From NCBI GenBank assembly GCA_038063755.1, contig JBBTUL010000011.1:3946-67945 (forward strand): a stretch of 64,000 bases of DNA, written 5' to 3'. This document shows positions 14,629 through 63,316 of the stretch, one piece after another (within the stretch, counting starts at the first letter, position 1; each line of letters begins with the position of its first letter). Source of the stretch: Patescibacteria group bacterium. Its GTDB lineage: Bacteria > Patescibacteriota > Minisyncoccia > UBA6257 > 2-01-FULL-56-20. Under the pieces are notes generated by a model. The model was not told the origin of the DNA and did no database searches. It worked only from the letters and a program-made list of their open reading frames with translations. Both the position numbers and the translations under genes were made by a program.

Positions 14629-14634
14629 TGATAC

Positions 14635-14660
14635 AACCCGACTTGCGTCGGGTTTTTTGT
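14635..14660 (+). terminator. Rho-independent terminator (AACCCGAC-ttgc-GTCGGGTT + T6)
   Basis: Perfect stem followed by TTTTTTG, just past the membrane-protein stop. Confidence 0.65.
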
Positions 14661-14727
14661 TTGGGACTTGCATTGCGGCAGGCGAGATGTTTAAGTCTTT
14701 ATAGTTGCGATTTAAAAGGAGGATTTT

Positions 14728-15468
14728 TTGTCTAGACGAAGAGTCGCCGTGTTCTTTGATTGGAACGGGACGCTCTTGAACGATCTGCCGCTAGTGTTCA
14801 AAAGCGTAATGGAGATTTTCAAACGGTATTCGGTTCGCCCTCCGAGCAAGAGGCAATACCTTGCGGAGATTAATGGAGACTTTATGAAATTCTACTGGGG
14901 ACATGGAATTCCTCCGAATAGATCCGCGTCCGACTTGAATAAGATCAGAAGGGGAATCATTTTTGAGAACTCAATTCCGACATCGCTCCATCAAAACGCG
15001 AGAAGGACTTTAAGCTCCCTGGAGAGAATGGGATTCACGCTTGCGCTTATCAGCGCAGAAGACTCCGCCCTTCTTGCTTCGGAAACCGCACGCTTTCACG
15101 TTCGCGAGAAGTTTAGCCTGATTCGTGGAGATTCTCGAAAGAAGACTCCGGTAATCAGGCGAGCGCTTCGCGAACTCGACGTTTCTCCAGAACGGGTGCT
15201 CTACGTTGGAGATACAGTTGATGATGTTGTTTCTGCAAGGAGAGCCGGAGTGCTCACCGTTGCATTCTCGAGGGGATATAATTCGAAGAGAAGGCTTGAG
15301 CGTGCCGCTCCGTCTTTCCTCATCGACAATCTCATTGATGTGCCAAGAATTGCCAAGCGGCTTTTTCTTGATGCAGGGTGCAATCTTGGAAGCAAGTCGG
15401 GGCGCGCGGTCTCGTCGCCTTGTTACGACGACCTACCCAGATTTGCGAGAAGCACCTTCCTCGACTGA
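14728..15468 (+). CDS. HAD-superfamily hydrolase
   Basis: TTG start 6 nt after AAAGGAGG. Motif I FFDWNGTL (DxN variant), motif IV VGDTVDDV. Confidence 0.75.
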   Translation: MSRRRVAVFFDWNGTLLNDLPLVFKSVMEIFKRYSVRPPSKRQYLAEINGDFMKFYWGHGIPPNRSASDLNKIRRGIIFENSIPTSLHQNARRTLSSLERMGFTLALISAEDSALLASETARFHVREKFSLIRGDSRKKTPVIRRALRELDVSPERVLYVGDTVDDVVSARRAGVLTVAFSRGYNSKRRLERAAPSFLIDNLIDVPRIAKRLFLDAGCNLGSKSGRAVSSPCYDDLPRFARSTFLD

Positions 15469-45677: not shown

Positions 45678-46820
45678 ATGAGGAAAATCATAATATTTGG
45701 AGTTTTGGCGGGGTTCCTGCCGGTCATGGCACTCGCCGCGTATGTGGGAGCAGGGGAGAGTGTCATGGTTCCTCCGCCGCTTGGCGGGGCAGAGCCTGTA
45801 GTTCAGAACGCTTATCTTGTGGGCGGAACGGTTAACGTCGCGAATCCCGTTCGGGGAGATGTGGTGACTGCCGGAGGTACGATTGTTGTCTCCGGAAAAG
45901 TGGAGCAGGATATTTTTGCTTTCGGTGGCAATATAAGCATGCTCGGCATTTCTGCCGAAGACATCCGCACTGCCGGTGGTAACATCACTATTGGCGGAAA
46001 GGTGAGCGGCGAAATTCTTGTGGCGGGAGGACAGATTATGATAACGCCGGACACGACCATTGCCCGAGATTCATACATTGCGGGAGGCACGCTCGTTTTT
46101 TCAGGAACTGAAAATGGCAATCTTACCGCGGTTGGTGGTAATATCCGTATTGACGGTGTGGTCAATGGCAATCTCTTGATCAAGCAAGCGGACAAAGTTA
46201 CTTTCGGACCGCAATCGGTTGTGAAGGGTACTATCGAATATTTTGCGCCTGCGGAGGCGACGATTCTCGATGGGGCTCAACTTGCAACCGCGCCGGTGTT
46301 CCATGAGATAGAAAAAAATCGCGCTGCTGGTGCGCGCCCGCGGCTCTTCGCCGCATTCTTTGGGATCGCGATCTTTTTGAAGGCGCTCGCTCTTCTCGGT
46401 GCCGCGTATCTTCTGTGGTATTTACGCCGTCGCGACATGACAACCGCGATCGAGCAGGTTTACGGGCATTTTTGGAGCGTACTGTTCCGAGGGTTTTCAG
46501 TGCTTGTCCTCATTCCGGCTGCAAGTATCATTCTCTTATTTACTGTCATTGGATGGATTCCTGCGGCGGCAATGCTCGCCGTCTACGCCGCACTCCTTGT
46601 TCTTGCGGCTCCGGTTGCCACGATAATCGCGACCTCGTTTCTCATGACGCTTCTAAAGAAGAGCCGTACGGATCTTGCCTGGTATCACATTCTTGGAGGA
46701 CTTGTCGTCGTGAAGCTTGTCGTGGTTGTTCCGGTGGTGGGTTGGCTTATCTGCCTTGTGATCTACCTAGTGTCTCTCGGCGCGGTGGCGGGCATTGTGA
46801 AAACAAAGTTTTCGGCATAA
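45678..46820 (+). CDS. Secreted/membrane protein with bactofilin-like beta-helical G-rich repeats and C-terminal multi-TM domain
   Basis: Signal peptide, then ~10 repeats of (V/I)xGx(V/I)xxAGGx(V/I). Then 4 TM helices. Confidence 0.55.
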   Translation: MRKIIIFGVLAGFLPVMALAAYVGAGESVMVPPPLGGAEPVVQNAYLVGGTVNVANPVRGDVVTAGGTIVVSGKVEQDIFAFGGNISMLGISAEDIRTAGGNITIGGKVSGEILVAGGQIMITPDTTIARDSYIAGGTLVFSGTENGNLTAVGGNIRIDGVVNGNLLIKQADKVTFGPQSVVKGTIEYFAPAEATILDGAQLATAPVFHEIEKNRAAGARPRLFAAFFGIAIFLKALALLGAAYLLWYLRRRDMTTAIEQVYGHFWSVLFRGFSVLVLIPAASIILLFTVIGWIPAAAMLAVYAALLVLAAPVATIIATSFLMTLLKKSRTDLAWYHILGGLVVVKLVVVVPVVGWLICLVIYLVSLGAVAGIVKTKFSA

Positions 46821-46851: not shown

Positions 46852-47274
46852 ATGGAAAAGATCATAAAAGAAAAATATAAAATAGCAGTTATCGAAGATG
46901 AAGAGATTTTATCCGAATCAATTTCAGGAGAACTCGAAGATGATGGCTTTCTTGTCGTCAAGGCGTTTGATGGAGAGAGCGGGCTCGAGCTCGTACGTAA
47001 GGAAAAGCCCGACCTCATTCTGCTTGATATCATCATGTCGAAACAAGACGGATTTTATGTCCTAGGAGCAGTGAGAACAAATCCGGAATGGAAACCAGTC
47101 CCCATCATTGTGCTCTCAAATTTGGGCGGCGATGCGGAGATCAAGAGGGCGCTTGCGATGGGAGCGGATGATTATTTTGTAAAATCCCAACATCCCATCG
47201 AGATGGTGGTCGAGAAGGTTAAAGAATACCTTGAGGGAGGAAAGTCGATCAACCCCCCGAAGATTGGAACATAA
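46852..47274 (+). CDS. Single-domain response regulator (CheY-like receiver)
   Basis: IAVIEDEE, phospho-acceptor DLILLDIIM, and T/K positions conserved. 140 aa, no output domain. Confidence 0.85.
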   Translation: MEKIIKEKYKIAVIEDEEILSESISGELEDDGFLVVKAFDGESGLELVRKEKPDLILLDIIMSKQDGFYVLGAVRTNPEWKPVPIIVLSNLGGDAEIKRALAMGADDYFVKSQHPIEMVVEKVKEYLEGGKSINPPKIGT

Positions 47275-47600
47275 TGCCACTTCCTATAATACAAGTCGGG
47301 ACACTCTTGTTAGGAAGTAGCGGCGTAGTCTTATGTTTACTCCTTATTCTAGCGGGAGGATTTGGTATCGGAATGTGGTTCAGCAGAAAAAGGCAGAAGG
47401 CGTTGGTTCTGCGAACGGAATTCGCTGAATCAGAAATCACCAAAATGTTCAAACTCATTACGGATGATATCGAGGAACTTTCCCGATCGCTTAAAACTTC
47501 CTCGGGCGCTGATGACGACTATGCGTTCGAACGGCTTAGGTCTACTGTCAAAAAAATGGAACTGTATCTTAAACAAGAGGTCGGAAACATAAAAAAATAA
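47274..47600 (+). CDS. Small bitopic membrane protein with coiled-coil tail
   Basis: One TM helix plus a charged helical tail. Start overlaps the receiver stop (TAATG). Confidence 0.45.
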   Translation: MPLPIIQVGTLLLGSSGVVLCLLLILAGGFGIGMWFSRKRQKALVLRTEFAESEITKMFKLITDDIEELSRSLKTSSGADDDYAFERLRSTVKKMELYLKQEVGNIKK

Positions 47601-47637
47601 CACCTCGCGAGGACACCTCATATAACTATTCACGATT

Positions 47638-49293
47638 ATGAAGTTTGACGACAAAAAAATAAAGCAGATCCTCTTAAAAGAAAACTACGTTACCGAAGAA
47701 GATATTCGAAATGCAGAAAGTTTTACCAAAACACATCCTGTCTCGTTCACGGAGTATTTACTCAAGGAAAATCTCATCACCAAGGATCTCTTGGGGCAAA
47801 CGATCGCCGAATCGTTCGGCCTTCCGTATGCGGATCTTAACTTGCGTCCGGCAACGACCGAACAGGTTAATGTACTGCCGGAAGATATTGCGAAGAAATA
47901 TCGTCTTGTGGTGTTCTGGTGGAACGACAAGCGGGTCATTATAGCAACCGATGATCCTGGGCAACCCGGCGTGCTCGCGGCCGCGGCGCAGTTATATCCA
48001 AAGCGCGCGGTCTCTCTTGCGTACGCGTTACCAGAAGACGTTAATGCGGCATTTATTTTTTATCAAAAACCGCTCGAAACTCGCTTCGGGAAGATTATCG
48101 AGGGTCAGGGACGAATTGCTCCGGAGCTTTTGGAAGAAATTTTTGGGGACGCGATTGCGTATCACGCCTCTGATATCCATTTTGAACCTCAGCAAAAAAA
48201 TGTGCTTGTGCGATTTCGCATTGACGGAGTTTTGCACGTAGCCGGTAGGATCCCCAAAGAGTATTATGAGAATATTCTTAATCGCATAAAGGTGCAAAGC
48301 GGCCTGCTCATTGATGAACACTTTGCGGCTCAAGACGGTTCGCTTCGATATGAAAAAGACGGCTCAGCAATTGATATGCGAATTTCAATCGTGCCGACCA
48401 TTGAAGGCGAAAAAGCCGTCTTACGTATTTTAGCGGCGTATGCTCAGGGGCTTAACCTTTTAGACCTTGGACTTTCTCCATTGCATCAAGAATTACTTAA
48501 GGCATCTGCCAAAAAACCGTTTGGAATGATTCTCGTTACGGGGCCGACGGGTAGCGGAAAAACGACAACCTTGTACGCGCTCGTAAAACTCGTGAACAGC
48601 CCGGACGTGAATATCACCACCATCGAAGATCCGGTGGAATACAAGGTGCTTGGCATAAATCAAATACAAATAAATCCTCAGACTGATCTTACTTTTGCCA
48701 AAGGCTTACGCTCTATTGTGCGCCAAGACCCGGATATTATTCTCGTGGGCGAAATTCGAGATAACGAAACAGCAGAAATATCAATCAATGCGGCTTTGAC
48801 CGGACATTTGCTATACTCCACTTTTCACGCCAACGACTCCGCCGCGGCAATTCCCAGACTTCTTGATATGGGAGTTGAGCCGTTTCTCCTCGCTTCCACG
48901 CTTGAGGTGATCATTGCGCAACGGCTCGTGCGCAAAATTTGCGATCGTTGTCGTTATGGCGCGGAGAAAAAAATCGGTGATTTTGATACGCCACAATTTA
49001 AATCTGCCGCGCGTTATTTTCCCGAAGAATCCATAACGCTTTATCAAGGCAAGGGGTGCGCGTCGTGTAGCAATACGGGCTACCGAGGAAGAACTGCGAT
49101 TTTTGAGTTCATCCAAATTACTCCCGATATGCAAAATCTTATTTTACGCTCGCCGTCTTCCCAGGAAATCTGGTCTTTGGGGTGCAAAGAAGGTGCGCAA
49201 TCGCTTTTTGAAGATGGAATTCTGAAAGTAAGAGCCGGTATCACGACACTCGAAGAACTACTTCGCGTCGCTGAGCCGCCACAACAAAAATAG
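47638..49293 (+). CDS. pilB: Type IV pilus assembly ATPase PilB (GspE family)
   Basis: N-terminal GSPII_E_N-like domain, Walker A GPTGSGKTTT, Asp/His boxes, tetracysteine motif CDRC...CASC. Confidence 0.9.
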   Translation: MKFDDKKIKQILLKENYVTEEDIRNAESFTKTHPVSFTEYLLKENLITKDLLGQTIAESFGLPYADLNLRPATTEQVNVLPEDIAKKYRLVVFWWNDKRVIIATDDPGQPGVLAAAAQLYPKRAVSLAYALPEDVNAAFIFYQKPLETRFGKIIEGQGRIAPELLEEIFGDAIAYHASDIHFEPQQKNVLVRFRIDGVLHVAGRIPKEYYENILNRIKVQSGLLIDEHFAAQDGSLRYEKDGSAIDMRISIVPTIEGEKAVLRILAAYAQGLNLLDLGLSPLHQELLKASAKKPFGMILVTGPTGSGKTTTLYALVKLVNSPDVNITTIEDPVEYKVLGINQIQINPQTDLTFAKGLRSIVRQDPDIILVGEIRDNETAEISINAALTGHLLYSTFHANDSAAAIPRLLDMGVEPFLLASTLEVIIAQRLVRKICDRCRYGAEKKIGDFDTPQFKSAARYFPEESITLYQGKGCASCSNTGYRGRTAIFEFIQITPDMQNLILRSPSSQEIWSLGCKEGAQSLFEDGILKVRAGITTLEELLRVAEPPQQK

Positions 49294-49316
49294 CAACTGC
49301 TCTGTGTCTCTATTGT

Positions 49317-50408
49317 ATGCCGCAGGAAACATTACAGCGTAAATTTTTCAATATCGGCCTTGGCAGAGAACGGGAGTATTTTGTTGAAAATCTAAGTACG
49401 TTGGTCGCCGCTGGCATGCCGATCCTAAACGCGCTCGATGCCATTGTAAAAGGACTACGTTCACGCCGTATGAAGCACATCGTTGCTCTTATCCGGGATG
49501 ATATTGAATCCGGTTCGCCGATCTGGAAAGCGCTTAAGAAAACGAACCTATTCGCTGATCACGCCATCTCGCTCGTCCGGCTCGGCGAAGAAGCGGGAAG
49601 ATTGGCCGAGAACCTGAAGGTGGTCGCGAGCGAACAAGAGAAAGGGAGAGTTTTTCGCTCCAAGCTTCGTTCGGCAATGATGTATCCGGTCTTCGTGCTT
49701 TCACTCACGGTTATTATCGGCGTGGGTATTGCCTGGTTCATATTGCCCAAATTGGCGCTTGTATTTGCCCAGCTTCGAATAGAGTTGCCACTCATCACCA
49801 GGGTACTAATCGGAATCGGCATTTTTCTAAACAACTACGGGCAGTATGCCGTGCCTGCGGCCATCACGGTGCTCGTCGCTTTATTTTATTTTGCGTTTTT
49901 ATCTCCCAGGACAAAAGATATCGGTCAATTTATTTTATTTTCTTTGCCCGGCGTGAAGAGGCTTATTCAGGAGGTGGAGTTGGCGCGATTCGGTTATCTT
50001 TTGGGAACGCTTCTCGAAGCGGGCTTGCCGATCACACAGGCGCTCGGTTCGCTCGCAAGCGCGACCGAAATTCCGCAATACAGAAAACTTTACGCGTACC
50101 TTCACGATTCAGTGGAAGACGGCAACTCGTTCCAGAAAAGTTTTACTTCATTTAAGCACGTCGATCCCCTTATCTCCGTGCCCATACAGCAACTCATCAT
50201 CGTCAGCGAACAAGCCGGTACGCTTTCCAAAACGGTGCTCAAGATAGGCCAAATATATGAAACAAAGTCCGACACCACCGCAAAGAACCTCGCCGTCATT
50301 CTTGAGCCGATACTGCTTGTCATCGTGTGGCTTGGAGTCGTAGCTGTGGCGCTGGCAGTCATTCTGCCTATTTATAGTCTCATTGGCGGATTTAGTCCCA
50401 ACAATTGA
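49317..50408 (+). CDS. pilC: Type IV pilus platform protein PilC (GspF family)
   Basis: Two GspF repeats and three TM segments. Confidence 0.88.
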   Translation: MPQETLQRKFFNIGLGREREYFVENLSTLVAAGMPILNALDAIVKGLRSRRMKHIVALIRDDIESGSPIWKALKKTNLFADHAISLVRLGEEAGRLAENLKVVASEQEKGRVFRSKLRSAMMYPVFVLSLTVIIGVGIAWFILPKLALVFAQLRIELPLITRVLIGIGIFLNNYGQYAVPAAITVLVALFYFAFLSPRTKDIGQFILFSLPGVKRLIQEVELARFGYLLGTLLEAGLPITQALGSLASATEIPQYRKLYAYLHDSVEDGNSFQKSFTSFKHVDPLISVPIQQLIIVSEQAGTLSKTVLKIGQIYETKSDTTAKNLAVILEPILLVIVWLGVVAVALAVILPIYSLIGGFSPNN

Positions 50409-50412
50409 TCAG

Positions 50413-50856
50413 ATGAAAATTTGTAAGACCGGGGGCTTTACTCTGCTGGAAATAGTTCTCTCCATCGCGACGATTACGATTATTGCCGGAATTTCCATTC
50501 CCATCTATCAATCGTTCCAGGTTAAAAATGATTTGGATATTACCGCGAATACATGGGTCCAAACATTGCGGCGAGCCCAAGTACTTTCGCGCGCAGTTGA
50601 CGGAGACAGTACCTGGGGAGTAAAAATTCAACCCGCCGGTTTGATTTTATTTAAAGGCGCGAGTTACGACTCACGCGATGCTACCTTTGATGAAATTTTT
50701 ATGGTGCCCACGAGCATCAGCGCCTCCGGCATTACCGAAATCGTTTTTGCAAAGTTCACCGGCAACCCGCAGGCAACCGGTACCACAACGCTCACGGCTT
50801 CGACTGCCGAAATTAGGACGATTAACATAAATGAAAAAGGTACGCTTACATACTAA
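50413..50856 (+). CDS. Prepilin-type (minor) pilin
   Basis: MKICKTGG|FTLLEIVLS: class III signal with Glu+5. The ORF opens at 50383. Confidence 0.75.
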   Translation: MKICKTGGFTLLEIVLSIATITIIAGISIPIYQSFQVKNDLDITANTWVQTLRRAQVLSRAVDGDSTWGVKIQPAGLILFKGASYDSRDATFDEIFMVPTSISASGITEIVFAKFTGNPQATGTTTLTASTAEIRTININEKGTLTY

Positions 50857-52591
50857 GAAAGGCTTCAGTATTATTGAGGCGCTTCTCGCGGGGGCACTTT
50901 TTACGCTCATAGCCTCTGCTTTTATCGGAGCCGTCGTGTACGGCGAAGAAAGCACCCAGCTTTCGGGCGAATTGAGCCGAGGGGCAACTATTGCAGAAGA
51001 GGGAATAGAGGCGACTCGGAATATTCGAGATAACGCTTTTTCTAGCCTGACTGCCGGAAATAACGGCCTCGCGATTTCCGGAAATCAATGGATTTTCTCA
51101 GGAGTACAGGATGTCGTCGATATCTTTACCAGAAAAATTAATGTCGCTCCCAATTCGCTTGGGAGCGGGTCAAGGAGTGTGTCAGTGTCTACCACATGGA
51201 CACAAACACAGCAGAGAGGTGGTTCGATAAATATTTCTTCGTATCTCACCAACTGGCGCGGCTGCCGGGGAGGAATACTTGTCTACGGCGATGGTGGCGC
51301 GACAACTGACGCCATAAAATATAAAACCCTGAAGGGAAATGATGCCAGCGACTGTACTTGGAGTTCGGCCGCGTCCGCCGCGGATGTGGATACCGGCACT
51401 ACTAACAAAAGCCTTCGGGCGGTTCAGGTTTACGCCTCCTCCAATCGCCATGAAAAAATAATGCTCTCTCGCCATTACAATGGAACTACGCAGTATATAT
51501 ATGCGCAGGTTTTTGACGGCACTTCCGGCACATGGGGCAATGTCCAGTTGCTTTCCAGCTGGGCGGCGGCAACATTCTTAGATGTCCAAAATTTTAGCGG
51601 AACATATTTGGCGAACGGTGATTTTATGGTTGTTTATTCAGACAACGGCACCACTCCGAAATCCAGAACTTGGGACGGTTCGTCGTGGTTAGCACAAGTC
51701 TCAATGCCGGACATGGGTGGTAACCCAAACTACATTGTCGTGCGCGCAAGACCAGGTACCAACGAAGTGATGGCTGCCTTTTTTGATCAGTCGAGCGATA
51801 CAAATACAGAGTATTTCAATGGTGGAACGTATGCTACGGCAAATTGGACACTTCATACTGAACATGCAAGCGCGGCTCCGAATAACACGCAATGGCTTGT
51901 TGATTTTGCTTGGAGCCCTAACAATTCTCTTAAGGGCGGATTAATTTACTCCGATGCCGGAACTGACAAATCGCTTGATATTAAAATATGGACTGCGGAT
52001 GGTTCCGGTGGTGGATCTTGGAGTGCGGTTGTAAATAGCACTAATCAAGCAAGTAACCTCGGTCCGATGGCAATACGTGGACGACCGGGAATGGATGAAT
52101 TTGTAGCCTGTGATAAAGACGCCGGGAACCCTCCAAGAGTTATATGTTATAACAGCAATTTCACGCCAACGTGGACTAATCCGACCAACAACATAATCGT
52201 TGATGGAACAGATGCAGGCATACAGCGCAGTTTTGATATCGGTTTTGAATCAGTTTTCGGAGATCCGGCTGTGGCTGTTTATTCCGACCGAACACTGACC
52301 CCAAAGCTTAAAAAGTATACTGCCTCGACTACGACGTGGGATCTTAGCGCCACAAATTTGAGTGTGATTGACGCGGCTCTCGCGACTGTCCGCATAACTC
52401 CCTACCCAAACACGGATGAAATGATGATTCTCCTGGGTGATGTTAACTCTCGTTTTTATAGTGTTGTTTGGGACGGGGACAATAATGTCATCTACACTAC
52501 TCCCGGCGGATATGCATTTGCCGTTCATGGCGTCAATGGTTCAATAGTCGAGACAGATTATTGGTATGACTTCGCATGGGACCTTTATTAA
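50831..52591 (+). CDS. Giant pilin-like protein (586 aa) with prepilin N-terminus and WDG(S/T)xW repeat domain
   Basis: MKKVRLHTKKG|FSIIEALLAG prepilin signal. The body contains repeated ...TWDGSSW..., ...DGTSGTWGN... units. Confidence 0.75.
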   Translation: MKKVRLHTKKGFSIIEALLAGALFTLIASAFIGAVVYGEESTQLSGELSRGATIAEEGIEATRNIRDNAFSSLTAGNNGLAISGNQWIFSGVQDVVDIFTRKINVAPNSLGSGSRSVSVSTTWTQTQQRGGSINISSYLTNWRGCRGGILVYGDGGATTDAIKYKTLKGNDASDCTWSSAASAADVDTGTTNKSLRAVQVYASSNRHEKIMLSRHYNGTTQYIYAQVFDGTSGTWGNVQLLSSWAAATFLDVQNFSGTYLANGDFMVVYSDNGTTPKSRTWDGSSWLAQVSMPDMGGNPNYIVVRARPGTNEVMAAFFDQSSDTNTEYFNGGTYATANWTLHTEHASAAPNNTQWLVDFAWSPNNSLKGGLIYSDAGTDKSLDIKIWTADGSGGGSWSAVVNSTNQASNLGPMAIRGRPGMDEFVACDKDAGNPPRVICYNSNFTPTWTNPTNNIIVDGTDAGIQRSFDIGFESVFGDPAVAVYSDRTLTPKLKKYTASTTTWDLSATNLSVIDAALATVRITPYPNTDEMMILLGDVNSRFYSVVWDGDNNVIYTTPGGYAFAVHGVNGSIVETDYWYDFAWDLY

Positions 52592-52671
52592 TATATGGGC
52601 CACACCGCATATATTCTCATCCGCTCGAAAATATTTTAGCAAGCTAAATATTTTTCTCACTCATTTCGATT

Positions 52672-53127
52672 ATGAAAAAACAAAAAATCAAAATTAATTC
52701 CGGGTTCACACTTATCGAATTGCTCCTCTATGTAAGTTTGAGCGGGATAATTCTTCTTTCCACTTCTATTTTTTTGACATCACTCTTGGAAGCGAGGGTC
52801 AAGAATCAAACGATTGCGACAGTAGAACAAGAGGGGGCTCAAGTGATGGAAGCAATCAATCAAGCGGTCCGAAACGCTACCGCCATAAATTCGCCGGCAA
52901 CCGGAATGAGCGCCACGTCACTTTCAATTAATACAACCATACCGGCGAACAATCCTACTATTTTTGATTTATCGAGTGGTACTATCAAAATCCAAGAGGG
53001 AGCTGGGCCGGCGGTTTCGCTTACTTCCAATCGGAGTATTGTCTCCGGTTTAAACTTCCAGAATCTAACGAAGCCATTCACGTCAGGAAATATCCGAACA
53101 TTATTTATACTTACTCATATTCAATAA
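52672..53127 (+). CDS. Prepilin-type pilin
   Basis: MKKQKIKINSG|FTLIELLLYVSLS. Confidence 0.8.
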   Translation: MKKQKIKINSGFTLIELLLYVSLSGIILLSTSIFLTSLLEARVKNQTIATVEQEGAQVMEAINQAVRNATAINSPATGMSATSLSINTTIPANNPTIFDLSSGTIKIQEGAGPAVSLTSNRSIVSGLNFQNLTKPFTSGNIRTLFILTHIQ

Positions 53128-53139
53128 ATAACACCCAAC

Positions 53140-54207
53140 ATGAACCCGAAATTAAAAAAATCTAAAAAATGGTTTGCGCCCACTGGATTTTTTTTAGCAC
53201 TCTTTGTTGCGGTATTTTTTATAGCCAACAACATTATAGCTGCCGATGGATCGGGGACAAATACGGTAAGCCCGACCTCCGCAACCACAAGTTCTGCCGG
53301 CAACATTTTTAATTTCACCTTTACCGCTGCGGAAACAATGGATAGCGGCGAAATTAACCTTTTGACTCCGACCGGATGGAGCGCTATGCAGGGTGTTAGT
53401 GGAACTGCAGGATATACGACCGCCGCATCAACTGGCATGATTGCTAATGTTTTGGATAACGCGGATAGTATTACTGGCTGGTCGGCTGGCACCCAATGTG
53501 GCGGCGGCTTAACTTCGGATACGACAAATAAACAAGAGGGAACCGCTTCTATCAACTGCGCTGCCAACAACGAGGCTCTCGGTGATGTCTTTTATAAAAA
53601 CATTACCGCCCAGAATTGGTCTGGTTACACCAAGGTTGGTTTTTGGATACGTTCCGGTAAAGCTTTGGCCGCCGGCAATCTTCAATTCTCCTACGACGAC
53701 AGCAGTAATCTTGCCAGCCCAATTGAAAACATATCGGTTCCGGCCATCCCCTTCAATAGCCCATGGATGTATGTCGTTTTAGATTTAGGAGCTACCACCA
53801 GAACTTCGGTTGTAAGTTTTGGGTTCCGGAATAACACCGGCGGTGGGCCGTTGGACTTTACGACGTTTCGTATAGACGACCTACTAATAGGCCCCGGATC
53901 GCTCTCTTTCCCTGGCGGTGGTGTTGTCGGTGCCAGACTGCTTCAATTGTCAAACACCCAGACCGTAACAATCACGTATGGCTCCGGCGGGGGATCAAGC
54001 GGCGTCACCGCGCCGGCAATAGTGGGAGCGGCTATGGCAACTACCACGAATAGAGTTTCAGATGCCGGAACACTGACTAATGTAGGTACCCAACCAACGC
54101 TAACTGCGATCGATCCTGCCTCCACGACCACCTCTACTGCGCCGACTATTGGCCGATACGAATATATTTATTCAAGAACTTTTTCCGGCGACGCAAGCCT
54201 TAGATAA
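53140..54207 (+). CDS. Secreted Ser/Thr/Gly-rich protein in pilus locus
   Basis: Sec-type signal peptide, no Glu+5. T/S/G-rich body. Confidence 0.5.
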   Translation: MNPKLKKSKKWFAPTGFFLALFVAVFFIANNIIAADGSGTNTVSPTSATTSSAGNIFNFTFTAAETMDSGEINLLTPTGWSAMQGVSGTAGYTTAASTGMIANVLDNADSITGWSAGTQCGGGLTSDTTNKQEGTASINCAANNEALGDVFYKNITAQNWSGYTKVGFWIRSGKALAAGNLQFSYDDSSNLASPIENISVPAIPFNSPWMYVVLDLGATTRTSVVSFGFRNNTGGGPLDFTTFRIDDLLIGPGSLSFPGGGVVGARLLQLSNTQTVTITYGSGGGSSGVTAPAIVGAAMATTTNRVSDAGTLTNVGTQPTLTAIDPASTTTSTAPTIGRYEYIYSRTFSGDASLR

Positions 54208-54208
54208 T

Positions 54209-54592
54209 ATGAAAAATAAAGGATTTATAACCCTGGCAAGTGTTTTGGTTATAAGCGCAGTCGGTCTATCGATCGCGTTGTCCCTTGTACTGCTTGGCCT
54301 GGGTTCTTCACGAACCAGTTTCGCTCTTAATCAATCAATTCAGGCGAGGGGCCTGGCGAATGCCTGCGCCGAAGAATCTTTGCGTAAGGTTAAAAACTCA
54401 CTTCTCTTCGTGGGAACTTCAACCCTAACCTTACCCGGGGGCACCTGCGTGTATGCCGTTACGAATACCGGCGGTCAAGCAAGAGCCATTACCACCTCGG
54501 GCCAGGTCGGCGCCATTATCCGCAAGGTCAATATATCAATTAGTCGAATTACACCATTTATTACCGTTACCTCTTGGCAGGAATTGCCATAA
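54209..54592 (+). CDS. Pseudopilin-like minor pilin lacking Glu+5
   Basis: MKNKG|FITLASVLVIS. The ORF opens at 54149. Confidence 0.55.
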   Translation: MKNKGFITLASVLVISAVGLSIALSLVLLGLGSSRTSFALNQSIQARGLANACAEESLRKVKNSLLFVGTSTLTLPGGTCVYAVTNTGGQARAITTSGQVGAIIRKVNISISRITPFITVTSWQELP

Positions 54593-54680
54593 TTTCTGAA
54601 AAGTTTTCCTTAATGTATAATTAAGGAGGGTAAAGGTCGTTCTTAAGCAACCACTTAACTAATTAACTAAAGAGCAGCAC

Positions 54681-55169
54681 ATGAAAAAACTAATTCGTAA
54701 TTCCCGATTGCAAAGCAATCGAGGATCCTCGATTAAATCGGGACAAAAAGGGTTTACGCTTCTCGAAATTCTTCTCGTTGTCGCCGCCATCGGTACCTTG
54801 GCCGGCATCGTTATTTTGGCCATCAATCCGAACAAACAGCTTGGTGACACGAGGAACGCCCAACGGAAAGCCGATGTGAATACGATCCTGAATGCCATCT
54901 ATCAATATTCGATTGATAATAACGGAGCATTACCGGCGGCTATTACCACCGGCTCGGTAGCAATCTGCAGAACTGGCGCTGTCTGTACCGGCTTGATCGA
55001 TCTGGGCGTGCTTACCGCCAATGAGAAATATCTCACGTCAATACCGTTTGATCCGAACGGATCCACTGCGACCAGTACGGGCTATACGGTCATCAAATCC
55101 GTCAATAACAGAATAACCATAGCGGCTCCGAGTGCCGAACAGAGTGCAGTTATTAGTGTCACAAGATAA
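54681..55169 (+). CDS. pilA: Type IV major-pilin-like protein (PilA-like) with long leader and C-terminal disulfide loop
   Basis: ...GQKG|FTLLEILLVVAAIGTLAG. Cys pair CRTGAVC. Strong terminator follows. Confidence 0.8.
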   Translation: MKKLIRNSRLQSNRGSSIKSGQKGFTLLEILLVVAAIGTLAGIVILAINPNKQLGDTRNAQRKADVNTILNAIYQYSIDNNGALPAAITTGSVAICRTGAVCTGLIDLGVLTANEKYLTSIPFDPNGSTATSTGYTVIKSVNNRITIAAPSAEQSAVISVTR

Positions 55170-55293
55170 TCTCGTTGAGATGCCTGATTCCCAGACTGAT
55201 AAGGGGCGTCGCGGAACTTTAAACCACTATTACAATAGGTATATATTAGTGTAATATGCGTTTACATAATCATGCCTAATCTTCAAGACAAAA

Positions 55294-55322
55294 AGACCGC
55301 CGATTCGTTCGGTGGTTTTTTG
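55294..55322 (+). terminator. Rho-independent terminator (ACCGCCGA-ttcgt-TCGGTGGT + T6)
   Basis: 8-bp stem with one G-U pair, then TTTTTT. 125 nt after the pilA stop. Confidence 0.65.
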
Positions 55323-55567
55323 CTCTGGATACGGCGCTCAGTCCTGCCGGCAGGCAGGCGATATGACGTGGGTGGGACAGAGTGCTTTCGCTTTTCAGTT
55401 ATCGCCGCTCCTCGATTGAGATAACCGGAATTGGTGACATCTCGCCGTGCATAAGTGCGGAGCAAAACCCCGCACTAAGGGCCAGACACGCCAGACTTTA
55501 TCCACCAACAGATTCGGCGGCCTTCTGGTGCGTGGGTAGGGGGAGGTGGGCTAATGACGAACGAAAT

Positions 55568-55597
55568 AAAGCGGAAAACCATTCGCTTTATTTTTTT
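55568..55597. terminator. Bidirectional terminator hairpin (AAAGCG-10 nt loop-CGCTTT) flanked by A-run and T7
   Basis: Abuts the stop of the minus-strand P-loop kinase. It would also terminate any + strand transcript from the 55.33-55.57 kb element. Confidence 0.5.
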
Positions 55598-55599
55598 GA

Positions 55600-56145
55600 T
55601 TATAAATCCAGCCTACTCGCGAGCTGTTCTACGTCTCCATCGTTTTCTACCACAACCACCTGATATTCCTTTGCCTCTCGGATCAAATAGTCCTGAATTA
55701 TTCTTACGGCCCTAAAAATTTCTTCCTGAAGATCGCTGTGCTCTCGATGCTTGAAGTATTGGGAGTAATGTTTTTTCTCGTCGGGTGTGACGACAAGGAT
55801 CAACTTTCCATGCGGGGCAACCAATGCAGGGTTAAGAAATGCGGCTTCCATGATTAATTTGTCCGGATATTTTGCCATCTCATTTTCGACATATGGTGCC
55901 ATGCTGTTGCGAACCGCCCGAAGTCCCTTGGTGACATTCTCTTCGGTCAGTTTCCCAAACTCGCGATACGCTTCTTTGGTTCCAACCCACACAAAAGGAT
56001 CCTCTTCCCGGGTTTTTTCTTTTTGAGCCACGACTTCCCGCAAGAAATCAGCTTCAACCAATGGATAGTGAAATTTCTTTTGAAGTTCGAGGCTAAGGGT
56101 GGTCTTTCCCGATCCGGGAGCGCCATAAATTAGGATTTTGTTCAT
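55600..56145 (-). CDS. P-loop NTPase / small-molecule or nucleotide kinase-like protein
   Basis: MNKILIYGAPGSGKTTLS Walker A at the N-terminus. The ORF opens at 56205. AT-rich. Confidence 0.6.
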   Translation of the reverse strand: MNKILIYGAPGSGKTTLSLELQKKFHYPLVEADFLREVVAQKEKTREEDPFVWVGTKEAYREFGKLTEENVTKGLRAVRNSMAPYVENEMAKYPDKLIMEAAFLNPALVAPHGKLILVVTPDEKKHYSQYFKHREHSDLQEEIFRAVRIIQDYLIREAKEYQVVVVENDGDVEQLASRLDL

Positions 56146-58192: not shown

Positions 58193-61100
58193 GTGCCCCA
58201 TGACCACATGAGCATTTTCTGGGAGAAAAACAAAGAGGGAAACATGATCGACGCGTTGGGTCGGAGGAAGAGCCTCTCTTTTATTTTCTCGCTGGGCCGC
58301 CGAAATACCCGTGGTGTGGTTGACCTCCGACTGCCCTTTCGCCGACGATATCCCGTCATAGCCGCATCCCTGCTCCTTGTAACCGTCATAGCCGCTTTCG
58401 GCGCGCGATCACTCCTTACGAAGGCGGAGGTGACCGATTTTCATCCGCTTACGTGTCTCGGGAGCTGGGAACATACATCCCGAGCCGAGGGGAAACCAGA
58501 AGCTCTTAACGATGCCACACTTCTCACGGCGGATGTTTCCGCGATATTTACGCAACCGACGAGCCAAATTTTTTGCGGCAACTTCATTCCTGATGATTTT
58601 AAAGAAGCAGGCACGATAACGAGTGTGGGATTGACCTTTACGTGGAAGATTGAAGGAGGGGATCAAGAGGGAAGTGTTGACCAATCCTCATCGGAAGAAA
58701 CGGTATTGCCTCCGGCAGGCGAAACGAATTTGGAGATGCCGACATCATCGGCACTTCTCGCGCCGAAGATAAAATTCTTCAGAGTTGCAAAAGCCGAGGA
58801 GGTGGTTCCACCGGAGCCGATGCCCGCGCCGGTTGAGACCGTCCCCGAAGAAACCCCGACGCCCACCCCAACCCCAGAGCTGCCTTCACCTTCCCCGGAA
58901 GTTATTCAAGACGGCGTGTCCGAACCGGAGGCGGTTCCTGTCGAAGAAAGCATCGTTCCGGAAAATGACGCTACTCCCGACGCGACATCTGGAGAAGTCC
59001 TCGGAGAATCCCAAGAGGCGGTTCCCGTAACCTCTTCGACGGAGAATGATGCGGGTAATGGTGTCGTGGATGAAAACCAAAACCCGGAAATTCCGTCGTT
59101 TGCTCCTTCCACTCCGCCGTTTCTCCGCGTGAGCTACAGTCTTGACGGTACGAACTGGTTTTCACTCGCCGACGTTTCCAGGGAGATGCTTGCCCAACTT
59201 ACGGTTTCCATTCCGCTTACTTCGTGGAGCGATCTAAAAAAACTTCAGATAGGGATCGAGGGAGTCCCTGCGGCGCTTCCGGTGCTTCCTAGAGTTCTCC
59301 TCGACGGGATGCTTCTCGAGGTGCACTACGAGATACCGCCGCTTTTCACGAACAACGAGCCGGACGAAGATATTGTTCCCGCTCCACAGGGATCGCTTCT
59401 TCCCGTTGTTCCCGTACTGCCTGCCATGGAAGGAGCGAGCACCGGCACTCCGCCTTCTTTCGGAGGAGATGAGTCGCCGAGTTTCGAGCTTGATATGGAT
59501 TCGCTCACGCCTATTCCGGAAAGTGAACTGCCTCCGCTTTCGTTTCACCATCCCGCGACAAGGAACTCTCTTTTTGGAAAAATAGCGAAGTGGTTGGGGG
59601 TCACCGGTTCCGCATTCGCACAGCAAAACGGAGAAACCCCGCCGCCGCTCCCCACGGCAGAAAACCCGATCATCGCGAGAGTTTTTAACCACGGGGACGA
59701 TGAGTTGGATATCCTTCCCCAGGTACTTCTTTCCAACAACCGCCTTAGGGTTAATGTTCCTCAACCGGCGGATCAGTTTGCTCCCGGGAAATATCTCCTC
59801 CGCGTCTGGGTGTGGCGCAACGGGAACATTTATTACACGGAAAACTCGTTTACCTGGGGCGTTCTCGCGATGAATCCGAACAAATTCGTTTATCTTCCGG
59901 GAGAGACATCGAAGATTGGCATCGCGGTTCTCGACGAGGGAGGTGACATGGTCTGCGATGCCAATGTCCGGCTCGAGATCACCACGCCCTCCAGCACGGT
60001 GCGCACGCGCGCGACGAGTGACGGAAGTATTGTCGTGAACGAGGAATGTAATCTCAAGGGATTTACGGAGAGACCGGACTACGAAACCGATTATCAAGTA
60101 GAAGAGCCGGGTATCTATCAGACGAGGCTTACGGCGACAACGGAGAACGGAACGCATACCATATACGATTCATTCGAAGTGCGTGAGTCAGTTTCATTCG
60201 ATATCGAGCGAAAATCGGCCACGCGCATTTACCCTCCCACACCGTATCCCGTCCGCATTGCGATCAAGACAACAGAGGCGTTTTCCGGAGATATCGAAGA
60301 GCGCGTACCGCTCTCCTTCGAGGTGAAGCACATATCCCACGGAGGACAAGTTGTCCGCCGGAACGAGGACCAGGTTATTCGATGGGCGGTCGATCTCCCT
60401 GCGGGAGGAACAATCGAGCTTCTGTACGATTATCTTGCTCCCGAAGTAAGTCCCCAGTTCTACCTTCTCGGCCCCCTTCGGGTCGGTACTTTCTCCGAGA
60501 CCCGGCGTTGGCAGATCGCCGCCGACGCGATCGCTTCAAACTCGGCGAGGACGTTCTACAGCGTTACCAATAATGCGGGAAGACTCATGTGGGCTACGGG
60601 AGCATCGAATTCAACGGGAGCCGAAATCGCCGGTCCGGTCGGAACGGCTGCCACCTCCTCTTTTGTGAAAGCGGCACATGGACCGACCAGGGACGAGATT
60701 TTGGCCGGAATGATAAAACGTGATGGACTGCTTGCATTGTCGCTCGTTATCGGAAACCAGGATGCCGCAGGGGATGCGGTGCTTCAGTTTGATCAGGCAA
60801 GCGTCACTTCGGCTCAAGCATGCGATGCGGTGACATTCGGTTCCTGTTGGCGCGCATTTGATATCGCTTACGAACAACTATCGGGAGAGGGAATGGTCGC
60901 ATTTGCGAGCACGACGGCATCGCGGCTCGCGTATCGTACCTGGGACGGTACAAATTGGTCTCCGGCGACAACGAGCGCTCCGAGCGTTGTGAATATGGGG
61001 GGTACCGGCGCAATCCGGTGGGTAAGGCTTATTCCAAGAGGGGAAATGCTCAAAGGAAGCCGCTCGGACGAAATACTTGTTATCACTTCGGATGCCAACT

Positions 61101-63316
61101 CCGATATCTTCGCAGGTATTTGGAATGGTTCGGCATGGACCGCCACAACAACCATCACCGCCGCCGCCTCGACGTTCCACACACAGAATTTTGACGGAGC
61201 ATGGGAGGAATCCTCCGGAGACGCGATGGTTGTCTGGGCGGAGGGAACAGCGGCGACCACCACTCCGTATCGATACAAGAAATGGACGCGATCCTCGACG
61301 ACATGGGCTTCTTCGGGGTTGCCCCTGCCGGCGATGGGAGCATCGCATATCGGACACTGGGTTGCGGCAAAGGCGGCGCCTATCGCGGGCAAAAATCATA
61401 TTGCGGTTATTACAAGCTCGGCGACCGCCGTCGGGAATAATTGCGGCACCGGAACCAACTGCCGAGCTCAACCATTTATTTGGGACGGTTCAGGTTTTAC
61501 GATGGGAAACGAATGGACGTCGCAAGAACCCGTCTGGCAACAAGCCGTGAACGTTGCGGTTGAATCGGTGAATACAAACGTACAGGTCTTTTACGCATCT
61601 TCTATTGCGCAGAGCACCACCGTTGTAAGTTCCTATGAAACATGGATAGAAGGAACGGGATTTTCCGCCGTAACCACTCTTGCCGGGTCAATGGGAGATG
61701 ATCTTGCGGGGGTACAAACGACGGCGCACCCGAATTCCACCGAAGTGTTTGTGACGGTTGAAGATGTTGATGCCGACTGTAACGGCATTGCGTGGAACGG
61801 GGCGACGACGACGGCCGCATGGGATATAACGGGGTGTAACTCCGCCGGAGAGACCGCGCTTGCTCCTCTGTCTCACACGGCGCAACCGAGCGAAGGATCC
61901 GCATTTTGGGTGGTAGCGAAGCCCTACTCGCCATGGCAGAGGAACTGGCGTTTCTACGGAGACATTACGGAAAACGACCCGGACAACACTGCGGACGTCT
62001 TGGGGACGAGCGAAAACGGATCCCCGGCGATTTCCCAGGAAGGATTCGCCCGGCTCCGAATGCAGTTTGTGGAATTAACGAACATTGCCCAGACCGATGC
62101 CCGAAAGAAGATCCAATGGACCACGGAAAACCCGGACTATTCGACATCCACCTGGACCGACGTGGGAGATACGTCGGAAACAGGAGCGGTGTGGAGATAT
62201 GCGACAGCGGCGGAAACATGCGCCAACTGTAGTGACAACACCACAATCGGAGCGACTCGTCTTACGGGAAGTTCGCAGTCCGGTACTTATATTTCGGACA
62301 AGGACGCGGCTGCGGGAACAGGAATGGATCACACTGCGCTTGCGCTCTCGGAATACGATTATCCGATTAAGGCGGAAAACGCAACCTCGGGTACCACATA
62401 CTATTTCCGCGCGTACGACAACGACCAGCTCACTCCCGTCTTTCGGGAGCAGGACAGCGACGGATCCAACGACTGCTCAAGCGCGGCATGTGTGTATCCA
62501 AGCGCCACCGTTCAAGCGCCAGCCAATAACCTTCCGACACTTTCCGCGCTCTTACTAAACGGAGGGTCGGCTATCACTGTTATAGAAAATACCTCGACTT
62601 CAATTGCGGTTACGGGTACTGCCACGGATCTCGATGGAAACGCGGACATTTCTTTCGCGACGGGAACCATCTACCGGTCGGGAGTCGGCGGGGGAGCCTC
62701 ATGCACGAGCAACGAGAATAATTGTTATCGCGTCGCATCCTCTTCATGTGCCAAATCAAACTGTTCGGGAAACAGTTGTGATTTCACCTGCACCGCGAAG
62801 ATACAGTATTTTGCGGACCCTACCGACTCGGGAGCGTTCTCTGCGGAAAACTGGCTTGGACAAATCACTGCGACGGATGCCGCGGGAGCGACGGGAGTTT
62901 CGACAACCGTCTCCGGTGTCGAACTCAACACGCTTTTTTCGCTGAATATCACCAATTCAATTAATTTCGGAAGTCTCCTGCCGGGAGGGGATAGCGGTGC
63001 CGTAAATCAGATTGCAACAACCACGAACACCGGGAATGCGGCGATCGATGTCGAATTCTCCGGGACAAATATGGTTTTCGGCGCGAATACCATCGCCGTA
63101 GGAAATGAAAGATACGCGACAAGCACCTTCACCTATTCGAGTTGTACGGTTTGTACCGCTCTTACCACCATTGCCACCGCCTACGAACTTGATCTTGCGA
63201 AACCTACCTCGACGGCTGTTGTGGAAGACACCGTTTTTTGGGGGTTAAGCGTACCGAACGGGAACCCGCCGGGAAGCTATACCGGTACGAGCACGTTTAC
63301 CGCGGTGACGGACTAA
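58193..63316 (+). CDS. Giant surface protein (1707 aa): TM anchor, Pro/Thr/Glu-rich linker, WDG(S/T)xW repeat region, C-terminal Cys-containing NNCYR domain
   Basis: GTG start. TM near aa 50-72. PEPMPAPVETVPEETPTPTPTPELPSPSPE linker. Repeats YRTWDGTNWS / IWNGSAWT / IWDGSGFT. C-terminal domain with the CTSNENNCYR motif. Confidence 0.8.
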   Translation: MPHDHMSIFWEKNKEGNMIDALGRRKSLSFIFSLGRRNTRGVVDLRLPFRRRYPVIAASLLLVTVIAAFGARSLLTKAEVTDFHPLTCLGSWEHTSRAEGKPEALNDATLLTADVSAIFTQPTSQIFCGNFIPDDFKEAGTITSVGLTFTWKIEGGDQEGSVDQSSSEETVLPPAGETNLEMPTSSALLAPKIKFFRVAKAEEVVPPEPMPAPVETVPEETPTPTPTPELPSPSPEVIQDGVSEPEAVPVEESIVPENDATPDATSGEVLGESQEAVPVTSSTENDAGNGVVDENQNPEIPSFAPSTPPFLRVSYSLDGTNWFSLADVSREMLAQLTVSIPLTSWSDLKKLQIGIEGVPAALPVLPRVLLDGMLLEVHYEIPPLFTNNEPDEDIVPAPQGSLLPVVPVLPAMEGASTGTPPSFGGDESPSFELDMDSLTPIPESELPPLSFHHPATRNSLFGKIAKWLGVTGSAFAQQNGETPPPLPTAENPIIARVFNHGDDELDILPQVLLSNNRLRVNVPQPADQFAPGKYLLRVWVWRNGNIYYTENSFTWGVLAMNPNKFVYLPGETSKIGIAVLDEGGDMVCDANVRLEITTPSSTVRTRATSDGSIVVNEECNLKGFTERPDYETDYQVEEPGIYQTRLTATTENGTHTIYDSFEVRESVSFDIERKSATRIYPPTPYPVRIAIKTTEAFSGDIEERVPLSFEVKHISHGGQVVRRNEDQVIRWAVDLPAGGTIELLYDYLAPEVSPQFYLLGPLRVGTFSETRRWQIAADAIASNSARTFYSVTNNAGRLMWATGASNSTGAEIAGPVGTAATSSFVKAAHGPTRDEILAGMIKRDGLLALSLVIGNQDAAGDAVLQFDQASVTSAQACDAVTFGSCWRAFDIAYEQLSGEGMVAFASTTASRLAYRTWDGTNWSPATTSAPSVVNMGGTGAIRWVRLIPRGEMLKGSRSDEILVITSDANSDIFAGIWNGSAWTATTTITAAASTFHTQNFDGAWEESSGDAMVVWAEGTAATTTPYRYKKWTRSSTTWASSGLPLPAMGASHIGHWVAAKAAPIAGKNHIAVITSSATAVGNNCGTGTNCRAQPFIWDGSGFTMGNEWTSQEPVWQQAVNVAVESVNTNVQVFYASSIAQSTTVVSSYETWIEGTGFSAVTTLAGSMGDDLAGVQTTAHPNSTEVFVTVEDVDADCNGIAWNGATTTAAWDITGCNSAGETALAPLSHTAQPSEGSAFWVVAKPYSPWQRNWRFYGDITENDPDNTADVLGTSENGSPAISQEGFARLRMQFVELTNIAQTDARKKIQWTTENPDYSTSTWTDVGDTSETGAVWRYATAAETCANCSDNTTIGATRLTGSSQSGTYISDKDAAAGTGMDHTALALSEYDYPIKAENATSGTTYYFRAYDNDQLTPVFREQDSDGSNDCSSAACVYPSATVQAPANNLPTLSALLLNGGSAITVIENTSTSIAVTGTATDLDGNADISFATGTIYRSGVGGGASCTSNENNCYRVASSSCAKSNCSGNSCDFTCTAKIQYFADPTDSGAFSAENWLGQITATDAAGATGVSTTVSGVELNTLFSLNITNSINFGSLLPGGDSGAVNQIATTTNTGNAAIDVEFSGTNMVFGANTIAVGNERYATSTFTYSSCTVCTALTTIATAYELDLAKPTSTAVVEDTVFWGLSVPNGNPPGSYTGTSTFTAVTD

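Follow-up and report, generated by a model that had tools for sequence, protein, structure and literature searches.

How do bacteria belonging to the candidate phyla radiation (CPR, or Patescibacteria), which are thought to live attached to other cells, build the structures with which they make contact? To our knowledge, little has been established about partner recognition in this group beyond a small number of oral Saccharibacteria in culture. The question is raised here by a 64,000-nt stretch of DNA (the window, to whose positions all coordinates refer) that matches a Patescibacteria metagenome-assembled genome (MAG) from Hainich groundwater (100% identity to AAB495_02685) and carries a type IV pilus locus at 46852–55169. 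In this cassette of co-directional open reading frames (ORFs), all on the + strand, genes for a PilB-type ATPase and a PilC-type platform protein are followed by five prepilin genes, one of which encodes a giant pilin of 586 aa. An earlier interpretation of the same DNA, made without database searches (the sequence-only reading), had called the giant pilin a candidate tip adhesin. We propose, with a probability of roughly 0.68, that the cassette is a compact type IV filament operon conserved across the CPR, with a lectin-like modular tip pilin and with the prepilin peptidase PilD supplied in trans.

The giant pilin combines a pilin module with a predicted beta-propeller

The 586-aa ORF proved to be a single gene, as the sequence-only reading had taken it to be. 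It is identical in three independent assemblies (ENA and Logan), and a homologue search with the giant pilin returned 309 proteins, the best 120 of which are nearly all 570–610 aa long, with 46–70% identity over the full length. Identical assemblies together with homologues of a uniform length of about 575–600 aa rule out merged genes or a frameshift artefact. By their MAG labels, the homologues come from Parcubacteria, Moranbacteria, Berkelbacteria, Levybacteria and Saccharibacteria; species-representative genomes, when scanned, extended the list to Magasanik-, Woese-, Davies-, Shapiro-, Ames- and Peribacteria. The glutamate at position +5 of the mature protein is invariant in an alignment of 48 homologues, as is a cysteine pair (C427/C439).

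An AlphaFold2 run on this 48-member alignment yielded a confident model composed of a pilin module and a beta-propeller, the fold that had been suggested for checking (mean predicted local distance difference test score, pLDDT, 89.7 over 586 residues; predicted template-modelling score 0.81). Over residues 148–586, which form about 30 beta-strands, the pLDDT means of 10-residue blocks are mostly at least 90. Beta-propellers dominate the Foldseek matches of the model in the PDB, headed by PLL/PHL, fucose-binding lectins of Photorhabdus (E about 1e-9; target-normalised template-modelling (TM) score 0.63–0.69; about 11% identity). The module is acidic (pI 4.5; 44 D+E versus 26 K+R). It has no Pfam family, the Pfam scan gave no RCC1 or PilY1/Neisseria_PilC match, and no solved structure is related to the giant pilin by sequence.

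The W-rich repeats of this module number eight and lie about 55 residues apart (type hhhYsD..t.P.h.h(W/Y)(D/N)G..W), from which we expect a propeller of eight blades. The WDG(S/T)xW units described in the sequence-only reading therefore exist as eight repeats, but they are degenerate and only one fits that motif exactly. A repeat profile found eight or nine repeats in 45 of the 48 family members; since it was built from the window's own repeats, the matches in homologues are the informative ones. Modular pilins have been defined as a functional module grafted onto a pilin for tip display and are frequent in the CPR (PMC8179133). With a pilin module carrying a class III signal (residues 1–147) and a separate module that is not specific to type IV pili (148–586), the giant pilin is, as modelled, a modular pilin of this kind, its pilin module fused to a predicted beta-propeller.

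The cassette is conserved as a unit across the CPR

Next, we determined synteny by searching 41 related loci with the ten window proteins (tblastn). The genes for the receiver, PilB, PilC, a 147-type pilin, the giant pilin, a 151-type pilin, the Glu-less pilin and a major-type pilin are syntenic in about 38 loci, which span all of the CPR groups named above. Deviations from this order are local rearrangements only, such as in Berkelbacteria, where the receiver–PilB pair follows the pilins. Across these loci the giant pilin is as conserved as PilB (Table 1), and the orthologue N-termini keep G↓F..E in four pilin families, while Glu at +5 is missing in all members of the fifth. The 26-nt overlap between the giant pilin gene and the upstream 147-aa pilin gene recurs in at least one other locus (L003). 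In contrast to the cassette genes, the genes flanking it in the window are not syntenic in any related locus, which rules them out as components of the system and implies that the conserved unit starts with the receiver gene and ends with the last pilin gene. Together, the PilB and PilC family matches and the five prepilin-type N-termini kept in orthologues bear out the assignment of the locus to a type IV pilus.

Some copies of the cassette (L018, L019, L023, L029, L042, L035, L039 and L040) lie on MAG contigs whose labels read Gammaproteobacteria, Bacteroidales, Omnitrophica or Sulfotelmatobacter. Mislabelling or mis-binning of CPR contigs is the probable cause; should any of the labels hold, the cassette would extend beyond the CPR.

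Assembly machinery and regulatory genes

All ten ORFs are present head to tail, with spacings between neighbours of -26 to +88 nt (Table 1), and their products were assigned by Pfam and NCBIfam profile searches. This close packing, with overlaps, on a single strand and the terminator on the 3' side of the last gene support an operon. PilB contains the expected motifs, namely Walker A (GPTGSGKT), Walker B, the Asp and His boxes and a CxxC...CxxC pair (CDRC...CASC), with GEIRD and EDPVE among the sequences present. Its NCBIfam scores all fall below the respective cut-offs (TIGR02538 PilB, 494 versus 675.65 bits; GspE, 464 versus 630; ComGA, 252 versus 300). Likewise, PilC finds its best NCBIfam match in GspF (196 bits, cut-off 424), ahead of ComGB (125, cut-off 240). 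The N-terminus of PilB (47638–48060) also matches a model of the MshE-related motif that binds cyclic di-GMP (E 0.013). This match is below threshold and the first motif position is K, not R, which makes sensing of cyclic di-GMP by PilB doubtful.

Table 1. Features of the cassette and its 3' end, with amino acid identities of orthologues in related loci.
Feature	Position (window)	Strand	Characteristics	Identity to window protein
Cassette, ten co-directional ORFs	46852-55169	+	head to tail
Stand-alone CheY-like receiver (response regulator), first gene	46852..47274	+	Pfam Response_reg E 3e-20
108-aa bitopic membrane protein	47274..47600	+	N-terminal hydrophobic helix
PilB-type assembly ATPase, N-terminal MshEN/GspE-N domain	47638..49293	+	T2SSE E 4e-120, MshEN E 2e-10	38–59%
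PilC/GspF-type platform protein	49317..50408	+	Pfam T2SSF E 2e-45 in two stretches (two domains)	27–56%
Minor pilin, 147 aa, weakly GspH/FimU-like	50413..50856	+	MKICKTGG↓FTLLE; N_methyl E 0.003	24–54% (small pilins other than the last), full-length
Giant pilin, whole protein				43–54% in most loci, 31–60% overall
Giant pilin, pilin module	50831..51271	+	leader, alpha1 helix (residues 14–67), small beta-sheet (76–139); ..KKG↓FSIIE
Giant pilin, predicted C-terminal beta-propeller module, residues 148–586	51272..52591	+	eight W-rich repeats, acidic, all-beta
Minor pilin, 151 aa	52672..53127	+	..NSG↓FTLIE; N_methyl E 7e-5	24–54%, as above
Sec-secreted 355-aa protein, Ig-like and CBM-like jelly-roll domains	53140..54207	+	N-terminal helix, then conserved AADGSG
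Glu-less minor pilin, 127 aa, PilX/GspK/ComGG-like position	54209..54592	+	MKNKG↓FITLA	24–54%, as above
TATAAT hexamer	54616..54621	+	in the 88-nt gap 5' of the last pilin gene; read directly from the sequence
Putative major pilin, 162 aa, 24-aa leader	54681..55169	+	..QKG↓FTLLE; N_methyl E 4e-5	36–71%
Intrinsic-terminator-like hairpin, operon end	55291-55321	+	13-bp stem, -18.2 kcal/mol, z = -3.75, then U6

In the receiver, the acidic pair E15/D16 as well as D59, S89 and K111 are intact, and its gene adjoins pilB in about 30 of 38 related loci. In three distant loci with Pfam annotation, PAS-type histidine kinases are often encoded within 10 kb of the cassette. By analogy with PilG/PilH, which are CheY-like, conservation of the receiver gene suggests that PilB may be controlled through phosphorylation. 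The 108-aa membrane protein has no Pfam or NCBIfam family and no tblastn match in about 40 related loci, leaving the idea that it is a conserved PilN/PilO substitute unsupported.

One putative major and four minor pilins

The cassette encodes four class III (G↓F..E) prepilin N-termini and one without Glu, each where the sequence-only reading had placed it, and its placement of a secreted protein among them was equally correct. A six-frame motif scan of the 64-kb window found no further true prepilin signal: an extra match to the regular expression at 7743 lies inside a GTPase gene, has a weak hydrophobic tail and is not a prepilin.

The 147-aa pilin matches gspH (TIGR01708) with E 5e-5, below the cut-off of that family, and its orthologues in about 35 loci retain G↓F..E. 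For the 151-aa pilin, the pseudopilin-family matches are weak and also below cut-offs; its orthologues are conserved over the full length. The Glu-less pilin lacks Glu at +5 in 22 of 22 orthologues, all of which share two invariant cysteines. A Pfam scan of its family gave faint PilX_N and ComGG matches in only 3 of 23 members, and its orthologue profile had no match at all among PDB sequences. The corresponding profiles of the other small pilins matched only the shared alpha1 helix of solved pilins, and on this basis no small pilin could be placed in a GspH/I/J/K or FimU/PilV/W/X class. A major pilin accompanied by four minor ones, of which one lacks Glu5, is the standard complement for priming and the tip in type IVa pilus (T4aP), type II secretion system (T2SS) and Com systems.

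It is plausible that the last gene encodes the major subunit. The 162-aa pilin exceeds the cut-off of IV_pilin_GFxxxE (25.9 bits), and its best family match is GspG (E 2e-8; 34.5 bits versus a cut-off of 88.85); ComGC scores 20.3 versus 75. These GspG/major-pilin matches, the highest conservation among the small pilins, a TATAAT hexamer on the 5' side and a terminator on the 3' side support its role as the shaft subunit. The sequence-only reading had pointed to a long leader, a disulfide loop and a strong terminator. The 24-aa leader is not kept in orthologues and is no criterion for a major pilin, and the cysteine pair is kept in some orthologues but not in others. The terminator, in contrast, is a real 13-bp hairpin followed by U6, though it lies 122 nt past the stop codon, and a consensus scan did not list it. 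The same scan omitted the TATAAT hexamer because no -35 match accompanies it; the evidence for an internal promoter at this site is therefore weak.

The hairpin lies in a 430-nt non-coding stretch (55170–55599) between the last pilin gene and a convergent gene, with no match in an Rfam search. This stretch contains two strong hairpins, the second of which (within 55555–55600; -14.4 kcal/mol, z = -5.8) probably terminates the minus-strand gene.

Machinery absent from the cassette

We scanned about 55 large window ORFs, together with 4 kb past the window end, with Pfam; a few of these ORFs match nothing. No Peptidase_A24, PilM/N/O, secretin or second T2SSE (PilT) was found, in agreement with the earlier statement that the window lacks a prepilin peptidase and PilMNOPQ. 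The 4 kb past the window end encode secreted proteins with weak dockerin/cohesin signals and no pilus genes. Similarly, Pfam annotation of three distant related loci to +/-10 kb revealed no PilD, PilM/N/O or PilT, so that their lack is a conserved property of the cassette and not an accident of this window. In the CPR, a secretin is lacking as a rule, while PilB, PilT, PilC, PilM/N/O and PilD are reported to be widespread (PMC6744442). Of the two options that had been offered, a minimal system or split loci, neither is singled out: the absence is real and recurs in three distant loci, and the lack of PilQ is expected in the CPR (PMC6744442).

Measured against known classes, the cassette has the ATPase with its motifs, the two-domain platform and the class III pilins of a type IV filament; a prepilin peptidase is missing from the window, from the 4 kb beyond it and from +/-10 kb of the three related loci. 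It does not qualify as a T4aP, with PilB below the TIGR02538 cut-off and neither PilM/N/O nor a second T2SSE in the window or the annotated loci. Nor does it qualify as a T2SS, given GspE/F/G scores below cut-offs and no secretin or GspL/M family match in the window. ComGA, ComGB and ComGC also score below their cut-offs, though the gene content fits the Com layout.

The propeller recurs in other surface proteins

An exhaustive search with residues 148–586 retrieved 89 representative clusters (50% identity) at E <= 1e-30. The majority are pilins about 580 aa long in which the module occupies roughly residues 150–590, and none has a Pfam domain beyond the N-methylation motif or a solved relative. 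In some pilin variants, Ig-like spacer repeats stand between the pilin module and the propeller. The propeller also occurs, at 38–44% identity, inside proteins of 1800–2600 aa that lack a pilin module and carry LamG-like and Fn3-like repeats, as judged by eye only. Its presence in these giant surface proteins is the behaviour of a module for binding and argues against a component of the assembly machinery. The proposal of a tip adhesin is thus supported by the predicted propeller, by its lectin-type fold matches and by this wider distribution, whereas the location at the tip is one that we infer. The available census of modular pilins relied on InterPro signatures (PMC8179133), and the giant-pilin family would have escaped it.

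The window itself encodes such a protein. Three genes downstream of the cassette (58208–63316, +) lies the gene for a 1702-aa secreted or surface protein without a Pfam family, in which a diverged W-rich copy of the propeller occupies about residues 870–1210 (profile E 4.9e-13; it cross-hits giant-pilin genes of other loci). On its 3' side follow five co-directional ORFs of 310, 290, 198, 285 and >494 aa (L046 13547–18333, corresponding to window 63404 to about 68190 and thus located for the most part past the window end). Their matches to dockerin (E 5e-5), EF-hand and cohesin (E 1e-3) are weak, but the run may encode a cohesin-dockerin-type surface assembly.

An accessory secreted protein and the surrounding genes

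The AlphaFold2 model of the 355-aa protein (pLDDT 82) has, besides Ig-like domains, a central jelly roll, for which Foldseek returned carbohydrate-binding modules of families CBM4/11/16/22/29 (E 2e-6 to 1e-4). No counterpart was found by tblastn in any related pilus locus. Homologues are Patescibacteria surface proteins of variable length, some with dockerin matches, encoded among other surface-protein genes away from pilus genes. A sixth, non-canonical pilin is ruled out by the Sec-type signal with AADGSG, by the Ig/CBM-like domains and by homologues outside pilus loci. By the sequence comparisons, the 355-aa and 108-aa proteins are lineage-specific additions, and we regard the former as an accessory insertion into the pilin block.

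A Levybacteria locus (L017) has a 553-aa secreted protein inserted after the giant pilin gene (11833–13494), with NHL/Vgb-type propeller repeats and an M23-peptidase-like C-terminus recognized by eye, and an IS200-like ORF (14586–15263) 5' of the major pilin gene. Accessory genes for secreted proteins thus seem to have entered the pilin block repeatedly.

Immediately upstream of the cassette lies a 380-aa ORF (45678–46820, +) without a Pfam family, which has a signal or anchor, Gly-rich GG.I.I.G.V-type repeats and, towards the C-terminus, a membrane region of multiple spans; synteny of this ORF with the cassette is not seen in other loci. Elsewhere, the window encodes UvrA/C, GlmS, BipA, a ClpB-like protein, ribosomal proteins, EF-P, EF-Ts, MnmA, MreB and a class II ribonucleotide reductase, as well as several unannotated large surface proteins. 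Its non-cassette content is housekeeping typical of a reduced genome. Two adjacent ORFs of 915 and 430 aa (10641–14628, +) have no Pfam family at E <= 1e-4, and the ORF at 37083–38222 has no Pfam match either.

A proposed mechanism and its alternatives

In the mechanism that we consider most likely, the receiver would be phosphorylated by a kinase encoded elsewhere and would tune the PilB ATPase, which in turn would drive assembly on the PilC platform. The five prepilins would be cleaved by a prepilin peptidase encoded outside the locus, and PilMNO and PilT may likewise be supplied in trans. The four minor pilins (147-aa, 586-aa, 151-aa and the Glu-less 127-aa protein) would nucleate assembly and stay at the tip, while the 162-aa pilin would polymerise beneath them to form the shaft; it is the canonical set of one major and four minor pilins with a Glu-less member that leads us to propose this priming-and-tip mechanism. 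The pilin module of the giant pilin would anchor it in the filament and display the propeller outward, most likely as a lectin-type adhesin for surface glycans of a partner or host cell. In this lineage, the 355-aa protein with its CBM-like fold may add a second glycan-binding activity.

Several observations weigh against this proposal. No prepilin peptidase was found in 68 kb, so that processing is assumed, and no PilMNO or PilT was found near the cassette in the loci examined, which leaves its composition incomplete by T4aP standards. Because the small-pilin profiles match alpha1 only, the GspH/I/J/K assignment is not established. The similarity to the lectin fold is moderate, and the lectins have seven blades as against eight repeats here. 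Finally, the conservation of the giant pilin in most loci (43–54% identity) extends across phyla with very different hosts, a pattern uncommon in host-specific adhesins that suggests a generic ligand or a structural role.

In a broader version of the proposal, the cassette would be an ancestral, self-sufficient CPR filament that operates without PilMNO/PilT and whose strongly conserved propeller of eight repeats recognizes a generic cell-envelope glycan. We regard this version as doubtful. Were it true, the filament would be a first-contact organelle common to episymbiotic CPR across phyla and not a host-specific adhesin.

Conservation throughout the CPR would also fit a universal ligand such as DNA, as in a Com-like competence pilus, a short DNA-capturing filament for nucleotide or DNA scavenging with the giant pilin in its uptake tip. 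The gene content equals that of ComG: an ATPase, a platform, one major and four minor pilins, no PilMNO/PilT and a peptidase encoded elsewhere. One orthologue of the Glu-less pilin faintly matches ComGG, and competence systems are widespread in the CPR (PMC6744442). The propeller, however, is acidic and lectin-like, unlike DNA binders; PilB is of the long T4aP/GspE type; the ComGA, ComGB and ComGC scores fall far below their cut-offs; and no ComEA/ComEC is encoded beside the cassette in the window or the three annotated loci. Moreover, a propeller-pilin system of the saccharibacterium TM7x, whose orthology to the cassette is not established, made no contribution to transformation (PMC11623550). 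Together, these data make a competence pilus unlikely.

We likewise consider it improbable that the propeller acts as a structural cap or priming plug, working with the minor pilins in the manner of PilY1 and permitting assembly without PilMNO. Such a role would account for a propeller as conserved as the motor ATPase, which is atypical of adhesins, and for the absence of PilMNO from the cassette in distant lineages. PilY1, a propeller protein, is cited in PMC11623550 as priming T4aP assembly with minor pilins. The same propeller nevertheless occurs in giant surface proteins without a pilin module, and filament extrusion in TM7x survives loss of the propeller pilin (PMC11623550).

A T2SS-like pseudopilus exporting proteins, possibly including the 355-aa protein, through an envelope without an outer membrane is very improbable: several parts have their best family matches among Gsp proteins (the GspF platform, the GspG and GspH pilins) and a secreted-protein gene lies within the pilin block here and another in L017, but all Gsp scores are below family cut-offs, GspC, D, L and M were not found in the window scans, the 355-aa protein carries a Sec-type signal of its own and has homologues unlinked to such operons, and a 50-kDa propeller on a piston pseudopilin would, we infer, be without precedent. 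A conserved type IV filament with a lectin-like modular tip pilin thus remains our preferred explanation.

Comparison with known systems

The nearest characterised analogue of the giant pilin is PilX2 of T4P-2 (thin pili) in Nanosynbacter lyticus TM7x (Saccharibacteria). T4P-2 comprises five pilins, among them the minor pilin PilX2 with its PLL-like propeller, which is needed for efficient host binding and not for filament extrusion (PMC11623550). Both systems are type IV pili of the CPR, each with a major pilin, four further pilins and no PilT encoded alongside. In both, the largest minor pilin bears a C-terminal propeller whose best structural matches are PLL-type fucose lectins, and PilX2 has been proposed as an adhesin. 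PilX2, in contrast, is described as seven-bladed with RCC1 repeats and no predicted PilD signal, whereas the giant pilin has eight repeats, a canonical G↓FSIIE and no RCC1 match in Pfam. T4P-2 comes with PilM2/N2/O2 of its own, and a separate locus encodes its pilins, while the window cassette includes a receiver gene. The TM7x pilins are reported not to be conserved outside Saccharibacteria (PMC11623550), unlike the CPR-wide giant-pilin family. Two homologue searches, one with the giant pilin and one with a divergent member from Saccharibacteria that is 31% identical to the window protein, returned no protein named Nanosynbacter or TM7x, most matches carrying no name. The giant pilin and PilX2 accordingly share a design; PilX2 is set apart by its description and no sequence relationship was found, so that we leave it outside the family while regarding remote homology as possible.

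The modular pilins of Streptococcus sanguinis (PilB with a vWA module and PilC with a ConA-like lectin module; PMC8179133, PMC9934059) also join a small class III pilin module to a bulky one that is expected at the tip and used for adhesion, including glycan binding, as proposed for the giant pilin. Their machinery, in contrast, includes PilMNO and PilT, and the module of the giant pilin is a propeller without a database signature. PilY1/PilC with FimU-PilVWX, in the T4aP of Pseudomonas, Neisseria and Myxococcus, similarly combine a tip propeller with four minor pilins, one without Glu5. PilY1, however, is not a pilin, whereas the giant-pilin propeller is fused to a prepilin N-terminus, and PilY1 is not among the 50 Foldseek matches listed. 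The ComG system of Firmicutes resembles the cassette in the logic of its gene order and in a minimal set of ATPase, platform and five pilins including a Glu-less one, in the lack of PilMNO, PilT and secretin, and in a peptidase encoded elsewhere; it differs from the cassette, which has a long PilB/GspE ATPase with MshEN, a receiver gene, a modular pilin of 586 aa and a major pilin gene that comes last instead of first. The Photorhabdus lectins PLL/PHL, which have fucose sites between blades and are the best fold match of the propeller, share its W-rich blade repeats, but at about 11% identity; they are soluble and seven-bladed, as opposed to a pilin fusion with eight repeats.

Type IV pili in the CPR, pilins of modular design and a minor pilin that bears a lectin-like propeller were already established, and a full-text literature search found no description of a propeller-bearing pilin in Patescibacteria beyond the TM7x study. 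To these our analysis adds that the propeller pilin belongs to a large, unannotated, CPR-wide family; that a cassette with a receiver but without PilD, PilMNO and PilT has been conserved as a whole; and that giant pilins and giant surface proteins have the propeller in common. The giant-pilin family, a major one that domain-based censuses of modular pilins miss, provides a concrete and conserved candidate for attachment in these bacteria.

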